Virus record (IMG/VR): IMGVR_UViG_3300022562_000399
Source: a virus
Lineage: Duplodnaviria; Heunggongvirae; Uroviricota; Caudoviricetes
Strand: one strand, 5' to 3'
DNA length: 64,000 bases
Position 1 is the stretch's first letter, and every line of letters begins with the position of its first letter. Positions 1-3,692 of this stretch are shown in pieces. The notes below the pieces were generated by a model, which was not told where the DNA came from, searched no databases, and saw only the letters and a program-made list of their open reading frames with translations. The position numbers and the translations under genes are program-made.

Positions 1-3000
1 TGCCCGCTACTCTCTGAGTGCACGTGGGCCGTGAACGCTTCCAAGAGTTTTTCCCCGTCCAAGTCGTAGGGAGTCGCAGCCGAGCCTCCGTACAGGCGCA
101 GGGTTCCGTTGATCTCTACATAGCCCGACCCCTGGTAATTGTAGATCGCGGCTGCATTCTCCGTTCCATACCGTTCCTTCCAGGCTGTCAGACCAGAACG
201 ACCCGCCTTGTCACTGAACTCTTGCAGATCGTAGTGAGTACGATTGCCCAACTCCTCTTTGGGCCAGTCTCCACTCGCAGGGGGTAGCTCGTAAGCTTTC
301 TTGGGGTCTGCTTTCGCCGCATCCTCCAAGCGATAGACCAGCGGGTTCTTCACTTCCGGCTCCGCGCTTCCCAGCAGGGCGGCCTTGATCGTCGAGTCTG
401 CTCGACTAATGGTGGGAGGCAACTCCTTCTTCATCAACTCGACGGTGACCACATCCACCTTCGTGCCGCCACCCAAGATGTCGATGCCCTTCTCCACGCT
501 ATGCACGCGGTAGCTCACGTTGCGAGGGAGTAGGTACTCGTAGTCCGGCCCACCCAAGTATAGGCCCTGCATGTCCTTAGGAACGATCACGCGCATCATC
601 ACCTTCGCGTCACCTTGCAGAGCATTGATGTATGCCTTGTCTCTACCGAAGGACCAGGCTTGGTAGGTATTGTCAGTGAACACCATGCCCTCTTGGAAAC
701 CGTCCGCCGTTGCCTTCGACAATCCGCGCCACGCCACCGTGTCGAACGGCATAGGCGTAGACTTAGCCTCTAACGCCGATTCCAAGTAAGCGATAACTTC
801 CACCGCTTTAGTGCGCAACGTGCTCCTCGGTGGCAAAGAGATCTTGCTCTCCTTCAAGTACCTGAAGCCAGCATCCTTCAGCAGTTCCTTTTGCAGTGGA
901 CCCTCGGGATTTCCTCCAACCTCCGGGTAGTATTTCAAGATCCCGTTGACCATGTCGCGAAGATCCGGCTGGTCTCGCAACAAGAACATGGCTCTCTCTT
1001 CTACATCTAAGTAGAGCCCTTGCTGGTGGCCGGGCCCATCGTAAGACCACGCCTTGGCCAACTCCTGCGGATGGAACGCACCTTGGTGCGACGGTGCCGC
1101 ATCGAACGTGTCCTTGACCGCAAGGTCTTCAGCCAGATCCAAAAACTGGGTGTCCGTGGTTAGGGGTGTGTAGGTCGGGGAGTTGGTCACCAACTCATGG
1201 ACGGCCGCGCTCTCTTCCTCTGCTCCCACCAGGACGTTCAGCGCGTCCTTGATAGGAGCCCCACCGGGCTGGTCCTCGATCTCCAGCGTCACCACTCGCA
1301 GCTTCGCGTTCCCTGGGGTGTCAGGAAACAGCACGCCTTCCTCCACGCTCACCACGCGATAGGTGGTCGCGCGATCAACCAGCACTTCGGCCTCTCCGGT
1401 CGTGCCGAGTACGGCCGCGCGTGTGCCTCTAGGTGCACGGATGCGAAACACCACCGGGTCGGTGTCGCCGGTCAGGCCAAAATCCAGCGCGAAGTTCTCG
1501 CCCACGTGCCGGTCCAGCGTGGCCGAACTGAAGGCATTGTCAGTGAACATGTAGCCCTTGGTGGTGAACAGATCAGCGGGCAAATCCTTGCCGTCCACTC
1601 CGCGCCACAGCACCAGATCGTCCGTCAACGTGCTGGCCTTCGGGTTGGTGTCAAACATCGTGGTCATTTCGATCAGACGCTTCTGGTTCTCCGGCTGCAT
1701 CTTCGACCACTGCTTGGCACCTCGCAGATAGTCCTGAATCTCTCGCGACTCCACGATGCTCGCCTGCCACTCACCCAACGCCTCGCGTTGCCCCTGTGTG
1801 ATCAAGCCCTCATCGTAGAGTTGGTACACGTCCTTCAGCTTGGCGATCTGCTTGCCTGCTCCATCGAACGGATCACCCTCCACGATCCACTTCGGAACGT
1901 CTGGCAGAACCGGCTTGACTACCACCTTGGTGGGGACCTGGTCCTTGGGAACGATAATCTTGGTCAGCATGTCGTCCCAGAGATCCTGCCGGTGCATCAC
2001 CGTGTCTCCGAACTTCTGCTCCACGATCAGGATGGGGCTCTGCCCTTTCGGCACGCTGTTGGACCACAACCGCACCTCGTCGAAGATGTCCCCCCTCGCG
2101 ATGGCGTCACGAAGATCGCGCGCCGTGTTCGAGTGGATCTGCACCACATAGCTGTTGGGCACCATGCGCCCTTCGCCTTTGGCCAGCCCAGAGATCGCAC
2201 GCTTCAAGTTGCGGTTCAAAGCATCCTGGGTGTCGATGGTCACATACTCGGCAGTGACTCGGTAGCCAGCCTGCCGCGCGCCCACCAACTTCTTCAAGAT
2301 GCCGTCCAACCCAGAGTCGCCGGTTCCGTCGTAGACGATGTTGAACTTGTTTTCAATGGCCCGCCGCGACAGTTCTTTGGCCAGGTAGCTCGACTCCTCA
2401 TGCAGCCATGCGGCGCCTCTCACGTCACCAGCCTGGGCGAACGCATCCCACTCGGGCAGCGCCTTCTTGATCGCGTCGGGGTCGATGGTCACACCGTACA
2501 GTTCCGAGACGAAGCCCTTGGCCGGATCACCCACGGACGACTTGCCCGCGCCGGACCCTCCACCCATCATGCGCATCTCGGGGTGGGCTTGGGCCTCGGG
2601 GACGCGCCCGTGCTTCTCGTGCTCGCCACGCAGGAAGTCGTCCAGGATCTTCTCGTGGACCTTCTTCCGTTCGGCGGACCACTCCCCAAAGATCGGCTCC
2701 CCCTTAGCGTTGGTTCCCTTGATCGGTCGATACTGGTGCTCCGACGTTTCCCCCTCGAACAGAGTCCGGTCCTTGACCTCCGGGAGAAGGGGCTCGTCGA
2801 TGGGTTCCACCGTACCAGCCTCCACCAAGACACAACGACACAGCGGGTGGTAGGGGGGATAGTCCAGACCCTCGGCTTGGGCCTTCTCGTCGGTCAAGCG
2901 TTGGATGCGTGCCACGTTGGCCTTGCTCTGCGAAGGGAACGGCGCCGCCAGGGACAACTCCAGCGGATCGTCAAGTCCCAGTTGGAACTCGACCTTCTCG

Positions 3001-3692
3001 CGCGCAGGGTACACCTCGAAGGTTCGGCCGTGCATGTTGCGGCAGACCGGACACACTCGCGTGTCCAACACCGAACTGACTTGGTAGCGGACCGCGCCGT
3101 TCTCAGCCGCCTGCACCAGGAAGCCCAGGGAAGCCGCCCGGCTCGTGACCAGGTTGGCCTTGATGTCCACCAGGCGTTGACCGCCTCCCATGACCGCGCC
3201 GTTCAGAGCCGCCGCCAACTCGTCCACCGTCTGCGGGTTGACCGCTGCCTTCTTCACCTCGTCCTCGGTGATGTCTCCGTCAGCGTGCTCGTGCCCTTCC
3301 AGGACGTTCTTCCGGTACTGCTCCACGACCGCGTGCATGGCCGCGCGTAGGCGCGGGAGAGTCTGCTCGCGCATGGACGTGAGGAACCAGTTGGCGCCGT
3401 GCACCACCTCTGCCGGGGGTCCCTGCTTGTCGATGTATGTCTTGCCCAGCTTGGAGTGCTGCGACGCACCCAGCAGCATGGCCTGCAACAGGGTGGTCTC
3501 AATGATGCCTCGGAACTTCTCCAGGAAGTCGGAGTCCAGCTTGTCGGCGTACTCGTGAGCCGTAGACCATCGCTCTTGCCGACACGCGGCGATGATGGCC
3601 TCCGTGAGGGGGCGCAACTCCTTGGCCAGGGCTGCATTGACCCGACCGGAGACGGTCCCCTCCAGGCTCAGGAAGGACCGGAGACTGGGCAC
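1..3692 (-). CDS. Partial (3' end beyond window) giant minor-head protein. It has a MuF/SPP1-gp7-like N-terminal domain fused to a P-loop kinase domain and tandem ADP-ribosyltransferase domains. Predicted to be a capsid-packaged, injected toxin/effector
   Basis: Hand translation of the minus strand gives one continuous frame. A GTG at 3692-3690 directly abuts the upstream TAA (3693-3695), and the frame is open to position 1. MuF signature ...GLDYPPYHPLCRCVLV... lies at ~2825-2860, with VCPVCRNMHGRTF upstream. The Walker A motif EMRMMGGGSGAGKSSVGD is at ~2540-2580 and a Walker-B-like IVYDGTGDS at ~2315-2340. ART1 is at ~1330-1790: helix ESREIQDYLRG, Arg motif LVLWRGVDG, STS-like FTDNAFSSATLD, ExE TTGEAEVLVDRATTYRVVSV. 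ART2 is at ~430-800: VAWRGL, FTDNTYQAWSFG, GGPDYEYLLPRNVSYRVHSV. A third ART-like start, YNYQGSGYVEINGTLRLYGG, lies at ~60-120. The gene is not in the ORF track because it has no stop codon inside the window. Confidence 0.75.
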   Translation of the reverse strand, partial: MPSLRSFLSLEGTVSGRVNAALAKELRPLTEAIIAACRQERWSTAHEYADKLDSDFLEKFRGIIETTLLQAMLLGASQHSKLGKTYIDKQGPPAEVVHGANWFLTSMREQTLPRLRAAMHAVVEQYRKNVLEGHEHADGDITEDEVKKAAVNPQTVDELAAALNGAVMGGGQRLVDIKANLVTSRAASLGFLVQAAENGAVRYQVSSVLDTRVCPVCRNMHGRTFEVYPAREKVEFQLGLDDPLELSLAAPFPSQSKANVARIQRLTDEKAQAEGLDYPPYHPLCRCVLVEAGTVEPIDEPLLPEVKDRTLFEGETSEHQYRPIKGTNAKGEPIFGEWSAERKKVHEKILDDFLRGEHEKHGRVPEAQAHPEMRMMGGGSGAGKSSVGDPAKGFVSELYGVTIDPDAIKKALPEWDAFAQAGDVRGAAWLHEESSYLAKELSRRAIENKFNIVYDGTGDSGLDGILKKLVGARQAGYRVTAEYVTIDTQDALNRNLKRAISGLAKGEGRMVPNSYVVQIHSNTARDLRDAIARGDIFDEVRLWSNSVPKGQSPILIVEQKFGDTVMHRQDLWDDMLTKIIVPKDQVPTKVVVKPVLPDVPKWIVEGDPFDGAGKQIAKLKDVYQLYDEGLITQGQREALGEWQASIVESREIQDYLRGAKQWSKMQPENQKRLIEMTTMFDTNPKASTLTDDLVLWRGVDGKDLPADLFTTKGYMFTDNAFSSATLDRHVGENFALDFGLTGDTDPVVFRIRAPRGTRAAVLGTTGEAEVLVDRATTYRVVSVEEGVLFPDTPGNAKLRVVTLEIEDQPGGAPIKDALNVLVGAEEESAAVHELVTNSPTYTPLTTDTQFLDLAEDLAVKDTFDAAPSHQGAFHPQELAKAWSYDGPGHQQGLYLDVEERAMFLLRDQPDLRDMVNGILKYYPEVGGNPEGPLQKELLKDAGFRYLKESKISLPPRSTLRTKAVEVIAYLESALEAKSTPMPFDTVAWRGLSKATADGFQEGMVFTDNTYQAWSFGRDKAYINALQGDAKVMMRVIVPKDMQGLYLGGPDYEYLLPRNVSYRVHSVEKGIDILGGGTKVDVVTVELMKKELPPTISRADSTIKAALLGSAEPEVKNPLVYRLEDAAKADPKKAYELPPASGDWPKEELGNRTHYDLQEFSDKAGRSGLTAWKERYGTENAAAIYNYQGSGYVEINGTLRLYGGSAATPYDLDGEKLLEAFTAHVHSESSG

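Follow-up and report, generated by a model that had tools for sequence, protein, structure and literature searches.

What might a tailed phage carry in a single head-module gene in which a capsid-anchoring domain is joined to a kinase and a string of ADP-ribosyltransferase (ART) domains? The question is raised by a very large gene on the minus strand at the edge of a virus sequence assigned to the Caudoviricetes (IMG/VR record IMGVR_UViG_3300022562_000399; hereafter, the window is the whole 64,000-nucleotide stretch analysed). From the N- to the C-terminus, its product comprises a MuF domain, a zeta-family P-loop kinase, three ARTs (ART1, ART2 and ART3) and an orphan tail of ~260 aa (Table 1). 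We consider it probable that the product of this giant gene is a polyvalent effector with several enzymatic domains, packaged into the virions of a large tailed phage (~100 kb class). The protein is a very large member of the known class of head-packaged polyvalent effectors or MuF toxins, rather than a new kind.

The sequence confirms a long open frame that constitutes one very large phage gene. On the minus strand of window positions 1-3695, the portal gene's TAA stop is followed immediately by a GTG (3692-3690) and by 1230 stop-free codons running to base 3 (translation), as opposed to 41 and 31 stops in the remaining two minus-strand frames over the same span. The GC1/2/3 of this frame is 0.63/0.42/0.78, with a GC3 that resembles that of the neighbouring genes, amounting to a strong coding signature over the entire open reading frame (ORF). 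A plus-strand ORF at 1197-3350 (717 aa) was evaluated as a potential gene and rejected as an antisense shadow ORF. The original prediction, which was made from the letters of the sequence alone, had described such an uninterrupted frame up to the window edge and had named a missed stop or frameshift as what might split it; no stop is present in the 1230 codons, and an independent assembly gives an identical product. The latter is P0001, a protein of 1657 aa from the Logan assembly of SRR14699976, which is 100% identical over all 1230 in-window residues and supplies the 427 codons that lie beyond window position 1. Hence, the C-terminus could be obtained as that prediction had proposed, with P0001 and the gene calls of its Logan contig being the sole source for it and for the downstream genes. 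All the motifs that had been claimed were also located, namely CPVC, YHPLCRC, GGGSGAGKSS, YDGTGDS, REIQDYLRG, LWRG, FSSAT and GEAEV. Scans of viral, genome and metagenome collections for P0001 returned no relative, and searching for an exact match to the 727-aa portal ORF gave no result.

The N-terminal region contains the predicted MuF/SPP1-gp7 domain, with both elements of its conserved Cys/His motif pair (CxxC ... HPxCRC). With the Phage_Mu_F profile (PF04233; cut-off 29.6 bits), the N-terminal segment by itself yields 30.8 bits and the scan of the 1230-aa product 26.7 bits, while TIGR01641 matches the giant protein at 3.8e-7 with 30.5 bits, below its cut-off of 39.65. The PHROG matches of this region (phrog_30193/115/241) are to minor head and head morphogenesis families, and there are many colinear MuF homologues with 35-40% identity. 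The gene lies in the head module, directly after the portal gene, whose stop adjoins its start codon; a Shine-Dalgarno-like GGGGGA run is situated 4-9 nt 5' of the GTG. Together, the abutting TAA and GTG and the Shine-Dalgarno-like run suggest that translation of the giant gene is coupled to that of the portal gene. Along the 38-kb Logan contig, PolA is followed by two small genes, portal, the giant gene, three small ORFs directly 3' of it (88, 102 and 76 aa; no Pfam hits), a prohead protease of the Peptidase_S78_2 (XkdF) type, and proteins of 431 and 342 aa, after which the order continues through the capsid genes to the tape measure. The position between portal and protease differs in content among the relatives: in Stenotrophomonas phage DLP_5 it is occupied by a 446-aa MuF+ParB-like protein, and Rhodobacter phage RcZahn, which among cultured phages has the most similar portal (50% identity), has no gene there, with a tblastn search using the giant protein finding no match in RcZahn. 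We therefore regard the portal-protease slot as a variable-cargo position. Among the related phages, the MuF-effector gene is present or absent as a whole (RcZahn, L002 8935-11542).

The P-loop kinase is likewise recovered, as a Zeta_toxin domain (PF06414) with 78 bits against a cut-off of 22.3. In an alignment of 16 sequences (the giant-gene domain and 15 stand-alone homologues), it retains 26 of the 26 invariant positions of the family, including those in GGGxxGK, I-D-x-D-x-I-K, HEESS and DGTG. A profile of this family matches the zeta toxin (PDB: 1gvn, 1.8e-14), PezT (2p5t, 3e-9), AvrRxo1 (4z8q, 1.3e-6) and Pnkp1 (3.4e-5), and with the single sequence the nearest solved relative is AvrRxo1 (E 0.012). 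An attempt to derive the substrate from the nearest solved relative was dropped, as the single sequence favours AvrRxo1 and the family profile favours zeta and PezT. The family has a WxPERxxLH helix and H-x-ESS in common with AvrRxo1 and (D/E)GTG in common with zeta/PezT, and it is a distinct phage clade. Characterized substrates in the wider zeta kinase family are UDP-GlcNAc for the 3'-kinases zeta/PezT and NAD for the 3'-kinase AvrRxo1. With all of these, it shares the P-loop kinase superfamily, Walker A and the catalytic Asp in I-D-x-D, but instead of belonging to a two-gene toxin-antitoxin module it is built into a capsid protein. Neither an epsilon/PezA nor an Arc1-type antitoxin came to light, and no Pfam hit is on record for the three small downstream ORFs. 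Elsewhere, the same kinase family is fused to MuF, portal domains or XkdF-type prohead proteases, and we therefore recognize three independent capsid-anchoring routes for one kinase effector domain. The fusions to the XkdF-type protease (PF14550) or the portal (PF04860, PF06074) are seen in P0013, P0014, P0016, P0018, P0019, P0021 and P0024.

Sequence-profile searches found ADPrib_exo_Tox (PF03496; cut-off 23.4 bits) in three stretches of the protein, with ART1 and ART3 scoring above the cut-off and ART2 below it. In each module, a beta core follows an N-terminal helical lobe that contains an x-I/V-N/Q-x-x-L-R helix. The modules are also related to each other in BLASTP comparisons: ART1 and ART2 show 33% identity over 121 aa (1e-10), ART1 and ART3 36% over 116 aa (2e-15), and ART2 and ART3 30% over 185 aa (1e-20). 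For the first ART the original prediction had proposed an R-STS-ExE triad, and this is borne out: ART1 has R / S-A-T / E-A-E and ART3 has R / S-F-S / E-D-E, both of which align to VIP2 through the STS and ExE motifs. ART2, in contrast, with R / A-W-S / D-Y-E, lacks the complete catalytic triad. Across 20 aligned ART modules of the family, only the R-G and the second Glu are invariant, and the serine is nearly so, with ART2 as the exception. The fold comparison covers ART1, for which an AF2 model (pLDDT 82.7, pTM 0.77) retrieved Plx2A, CDTa, VIP2, C3larvin, Certhrax, C3bot, iota Ia and C2-I from the PDB in Foldseek (probability 1.0, E 1e-11 to 1e-9, TM 0.5-0.63). ART1 is accordingly modelled with the C3/VIP2/CDTa fold. 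Of the two complete ARTs that had been claimed, ART1 stands in both fold and triad, while ART2 stands as a fold by paralogy and falls short in its triad. ART2 is a true paralogue of ART1 and ART3, but a degenerate one. The third ART, which had been discerned from its start at the window edge, is genuine; its TFRG, YGSFS and GEDEW motifs lie beyond the edge and were read from P0001. Only two of the three, ART1 and ART3, look catalytically intact, and most of ART3 lies outside the window, which limits the interpretation. The ExE motif and the analogy with Bxa and T4 Alt (see below) predict that the modification by ART1 and ART3 is most likely of arginine.

After the ARTs, residues ~1395-1657 of P0001 form the orphan region, which looks like two weakly similar beta-sheet-plus-helix repeats with a Lys/Glu/Ala-rich helix between them. 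Neither Pfam nor PHROGs contains a match to it; a word-indexed homology search also returned nothing, a weak negative given that P0001 itself was not returned. A single-sequence AF2 model of the region (pLDDT 46.7) was too poor for a fold search. A weak BLAST similarity between ART1 and the tail (Ct1) raised the possibility of a fourth ART, which was rejected with an hhalign probability of 0.06 against the ART family. A similar short motif follows each ART (ALNVLVGAEE, AALLGSAE and AGLLAEST, at window ~1230-1290, at ~370-410 and beyond the edge, respectively) and is absent from 170 relatives. We dropped it as evidence for a prohead-protease site, duplication of a module together with its linker being simpler, and it is probably a by-product of such duplication. 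The GC content declines along the giant ORF (MuF 0.643, zeta 0.623, ART1 0.614, ART2 0.567, in-window part of ART3 0.577), and this fall from MuF to the ARTs would fit cargo domains that were acquired later or exchanged.

Is this architecture confined to one phage? When the first 1200 residues served as query in an exhaustive search, 4494 relatives emerged, which were classified locally and then checked with Pfam, a census that is biased in that the query holds both the kinase and the ART domain types. Among them is a family colinear over MuF and the kinase, with 35-40% identity over residues 4-580 (P0025-P0033), along with many MuF-only, zeta-only, MuF-zeta(-zeta) and MuF-ART proteins. The combination of MuF, zeta and ART is seen in at least seven other 50%-identity clusters (P0009, P0025, P0030, P0075, P0128, P0129 and P0165), P0009 being a complete gene of 783 aa from a TARA sample; P0088 shows the order ART-zeta-ART and P0046 the order MuF-ART-ART. 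The ART is the last domain in almost all of these ART-bearing relatives, and three ARTs with further sequence after them are found only in P0001. A distinct tail motif, ~NRF[VL]W-x-PG-[DQ]-x-Q, is shared after the ART by the MuF-ART relatives P0153, P0084, P0110, P0167 and P0101, whose C-termini it forms, and is absent from P0001. The original prediction had deemed a kinase with multiple ARTs in one polypeptide unusual. This novelty of a kinase plus ART on a MuF anchor was overstated, while the three ARTs and the orphan tail do remain particular to this protein.

The published systems lead to the same placement. Polyvalent virion-packaged effectors were defined by Iyer et al. 2017 (PMC5512222), who described MuF as a hub, reported phage fusions of a zeta-toxin-like kinase to MuF and as many as 12 ARTs in one polyvalent protein, and stated that the Alt/VIP2-clade ARTs are outside genuine polyvalent proteins. 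Like these, the giant protein combines several unrelated effector domains, a kinase and three ARTs, with MuF in one large head-gene polypeptide. It differs from them in that the ARTs emphasised there are of the H-Y-D type (Tox-ART-HYD2), whereas here there are three R-S-E ARTs among at least six modules, and in that it yielded none of the usual hub domains such as MPTase, ArdC or ParB. A 2022 survey from the same group reported many Alt/VIP2 ARTs fused to MuF (PMC9503650), and MuF-VIP2 fusions occur in the lytic Microbacterium phages Percival, Goodman and Johann (PMC7302621). Jamet et al. 2017 defined the MuF polymorphic toxins (191, of which 14% are ARTs) and found small ORFs directly downstream in 89% of their genes (PMC5576092). 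Bxa, the MuF-ART of a Bacteroides stercoris prophage, ADP-ribosylates arginines promiscuously and is neutralised by two adjacent immunity proteins (BAH/Bsi; PMC11699363). With such MuF-ART fusions the giant protein shares the N-terminal MuF, the C-terminal R-S-E ART, the head-module location and the small ORFs after the gene. However, they have a single terminal ART and no kinase, as opposed to its zeta kinase between MuF and three ARTs and its orphan tail, and no ARH-type hydrolase is recorded beside it. The MuF-then-kinase order is shared with metagenomic MuF-zeta proteins (P0002-P0008, P0025-P0033) and with ORF030 of cyanophage P-SS2 (GQ334450, 1500 aa, 'minor head protein'), whose homologous kinase is 35% identical; most MuF-zeta proteins, though, have one or two kinases and tails other than ARTs, with the ART, when present, being usually single and terminal. 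In purified P-SS2 virions ORF030 was detected with an average of 96.5 peptides, the highest count (PMC2784084, Table 2).

Two further groups of ARTs offer parallels. First, the binary toxins VIP2, iota Ia, CDTa and C2-I are among the best structural matches of ART1. They have tandem ART folds, of which one (the N-terminal one in VIP2, iota and CDTa) is catalytically dead and acts as an adaptor, a situation that resembles the intact/degenerate/intact series of the giant protein. However, these toxins are secreted, enter eukaryotic cells via a pore-forming B component and modify actin, whereas the three ARTs of the giant protein, at 30-36% mutual identity, would be delivered by the capsid into bacteria. 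Second, T4 Alt reaches the phage head by means of a capsid-targeting sequence, is trimmed by the gp21 protease and has no MuF domain. It also has one ART and no kinase, and is likened to the giant protein by the shared R-S-E class and the head-packaging logic alone. Like the cargo posited here, Alt, an R-S-E ART, is packaged in the head and ejected along with the DNA, after which it modifies arginines of host RNA polymerase and other proteins (PMC5512222). It serves as the functional model for ART1 and ART3. In sum, the pairwise fusions of MuF with a zeta kinase or a VIP2 ART and multi-ART virion proteins have all been published, and what is particular to the giant protein is its size, the three R-S-E ARTs behind a kinase in the order intact/degenerate/intact, and the orphan C-terminal module.

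From this combination of domains and gene position we infer the following course, from packaging through release and ejection to the modification of substrates for the benefit of the phage. The MuF/SPP1-gp7 domain would be made right after the portal protein, probably by coupled translation, and, as in other members of the MuF family, would recruit the entire polypeptide into the procapsid at the portal. There, its modules might be freed proteolytically by the XkdF-type prohead protease, and the cargo would then be ejected with the DNA into the host cytoplasm. At the expense of ATP, the zeta-family kinase would phosphorylate a small molecule of the nucleotide type, for which family precedent suggests UDP-GlcNAc or NAD. 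ART1 and ART3 would transfer single ADP-ribose units from NAD+ to host proteins, most likely to arginines, in the manner of T4 Alt and Bxa, with ART2 more likely acting as a degenerate adaptor or substrate-binding copy. By analogy, such an injected effector is supported by the literature on MuF fusions (PMC5512222, PMC9503650, PMC5576092, PMC11699363) and by the detection of the P-SS2 protein in virions.

Several observations weigh against this proposal. The MuF match is marginal, straddling the Pfam cut-off and lying under that of TIGR01641. The P-SS2 peptides are not mapped to domains, and they may derive from other parts of ORF030, which is annotated with a capsid-protein homologue. A cargo of 1657 aa is large for ejection and would need unfolding or proteolysis, with no cleavage sites established. 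The link from ExE to arginine specificity is only statistical, and no substrate can be read from the kinase sequence with its mix of zeta/PezT and AvrRxo1 features. RcZahn has nothing between portal and maturation protease; in this lineage, heads can thus be assembled without the giant protein, whose benefit to the phage is presumed.

The alternative that survives best is that the protein is a MuF polymorphic toxin of the kind described by Jamet et al. and exemplified by Bxa, namely an antibacterial or host-colonisation toxin encoded by a phage or prophage, which serves competition or lysogen fitness instead of host takeover and is accompanied by immunity proteins, encoded just downstream, that would protect the producing cell. 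It overlaps our proposal in that both entail head packaging and delivery, with the main difference lying in the beneficiary. The N-terminal MuF followed by C-terminal toxin domains is as it would have it, as are the three small ORFs directly downstream, which recall the arrangement in Bxa and the large majority of MuF toxin genes, and the GC drop from MuF (0.643) to ART (0.567) would fit swapped-in C-terminal cassettes. However, no integrase or repressor was found among the ~28 larger window ORFs scanned, though this set was not exhaustive, nor is the genome complete, and the records of the downstream ORFs show neither an ADP-ribosylhydrolase nor an epsilon-type antitoxin domain. The phage also has its own PolA, primase, DnaB helicase, thymidylate synthase and exonuclease, with nearly all window genes on the minus strand. 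On balance, we view the polymorphic toxin as unlikely, albeit the most serious competitor. Far less probable is that the enzymatic domains are dead and the protein merely a structural or internal head component, such as a scaffold or an SPP1 gp7-like ejection modulator. While the STS serine and the first Glu have disappeared from ART2, the founding MuF members SPP1 gp7 and Mu gpF are structural (PMC5512222), and RcZahn manages without the gene, such a relic is hard to reconcile with the full R / S / ExE triads of ART1 and ART3, the intact invariant positions of the kinase, the coding signature along the whole ORF and the activity of the homologous MuF-ART Bxa. That the polypeptide is an artefact of a chimeric contig or of fused neighbouring genes, an idea that draws on its single-copy metagenomic origin and on one Logan contig being the only other record, is scarcely credible in light of the same product and gene order in that independent assembly, the stop-free frame as opposed to 31-41 stops in the others, and the colinear MuF-zeta(-ART) proteins in many other samples.

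Within the injected-effector proposal, one may speculate, with very little confidence, that the kinase is an AvrRxo1-like NAD 3'-kinase that has been fused repeatedly to ARTs because both act on NAD. Two roles could then be envisaged. First, 3'-NADP may serve as the ART donor, leaving a phospho-ADP-ribose mark that host ADP-ribosylhydrolases cannot remove. Second, NAD may be shielded or withdrawn from NAD-depleting defences of the host while the ARTs act. The one observation in favour of such coupling is that at least eight clusters combine a kinase and an ART on a single MuF anchor. It is weakened by this recurrence having been found with a query that holds both domains, and by the overall profile scores, which place the kinase nearer the UDP-GlcNAc kinases.

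The remainder of the window gives the genomic setting. Portal and PolA place the phage closest, among cultured relatives, to ~100-kb phages of Alphaproteobacteria, including RcZahn and the Rhizobium phages RHph_TM16 and RHph_Y1_11, and to ~80-97-kb siphoviruses of Vibrio and Stenotrophomonas. No near-identical DNA was found among GenBank phages, and no tRNAs in the window. Synteny with RcZahn extends over PPDK, the PTP phosphatases, PolA, portal, protease and major capsid. A PPDK-like kinase (PPDK_N with a PEP-utilizers mobile domain) adjoins a DSP/PTP-phosphatase-like gene, both being syntenic with RcZahn genes 6-11 (L002 1-5051), and thymidylate-synthase-like and nucleoside 2-deoxyribosyltransferase-like genes lie elsewhere in the window; the coordinates of this set are 11611-16329, 20118-21098 and 32901-33758, all on the minus strand. 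Taken together, these genes might constitute a nucleotide or DNA-modification module. The layout of the head module is atypical: the large terminase (24637-26547, minus strand) is ~19 kb away from the portal gene, and DNA polymerase A lies directly upstream of the latter, as it does in RcZahn. The replication or early region includes an SPFH/Band 7 protein, a DUF6011 protein and an AAA ATPase (31566-32330, 43094-43777 and 57412-58623, all on the minus strand).

Table 1. Window coordinates of the giant gene, its domains and motifs, and the adjoining portal gene.
Feature	Residues	Window position	Strand	Basis or remark
In-window part of the giant gene (MuF, zeta kinase, three ARTs)	codons 1-1230 of 1657	3..3692	-	open frame; 100% identity to P0001
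Junction with portal gene		3693..3702	-	TAA 3695-3693, GTG start, GGGGGA run 3702-3697; sequence read
Portal protein gene, directly upstream of giant gene		3693..5876	-	Phage_portal 4.5e-12; phrog_12 8e-30
N-terminal head-anchoring region	1-330	2703..3692	-	contains MuF/SPP1-gp7 domain
Phage_Mu_F Pfam match	146-289	2826-3257	-	alignment reaches profile position 111/112 at residue 289
CPVC motif	214-217	3039-3053	-	MuF Cys/His pair
YHPLCRC motif	281-287	2832-2852	-	MuF Cys/His pair
Zeta-toxin-family P-loop kinase domain	336-579	1956..2687	-	Pfam Zeta_toxin 8.5e-22
Walker A GGGSGAGKSS	377-386	2535-2564	-	kinase motif
TIDPDAIKK		2463-2489	-	kinase motif; includes catalytic Asp
HEESS		2388-2402	-	kinase motif
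YDGTGDS	454-460	2313-2333	-	kinase motif
ART1, R-S-E clade, intact triad	606-802	1287..1877	-	ADPrib_exo_Tox 36 bits; AF2 model; Foldseek
ART1 NAD-site helix REIQDYLRG	650-658	1719-1745	-	motif
ART1 LWRG	695-698	1599-1610	-	catalytic Arg R697
ART1 FSSAT	721-725	1518-1532	-	S-T-S-type motif
ART1 GEAEV	766-770	1383-1397	-	ExE motif; catalytic Glu E769
ART2, degenerate triad	873-1093	414..1076	-	Pfam 14.4 bits only; BLASTP to ART3 and ART1
ART2 AWRG		723-734	-	Arg motif
ART2 YQAWS		651-665	-	Ala in place of first Ser
ART2 PDYEY		534-548	-	DxE instead of ExE
ART3 N-terminal helical part	1175-1230 of 1175-1385	3..170	-	full ART3 from P0001: 47.6 bits
ART3 YVEINGTLRLY	1191-1201	90-122	-	ART helix at window edge

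Finally, we consider what the giant protein means for the biology of these phages. It opens no new category, with the class, the single fusions and the delivery hypothesis all being already in the literature. Nevertheless, it defines a metagenomic family of MuF-zeta-ART proteins and offers separable, testable domains (the kinase, ART1 and ART3), together with an ART copy that is degenerate by nature and a C-terminal module that is an orphan. If it is packaged and ejected, one capsid-borne polypeptide would bring a nucleotide-directed kinase and two or three protein-modifying ARTs into the host before any phage gene expression, and, if this is true, it would represent a compact kit for early takeover or counter-defence.

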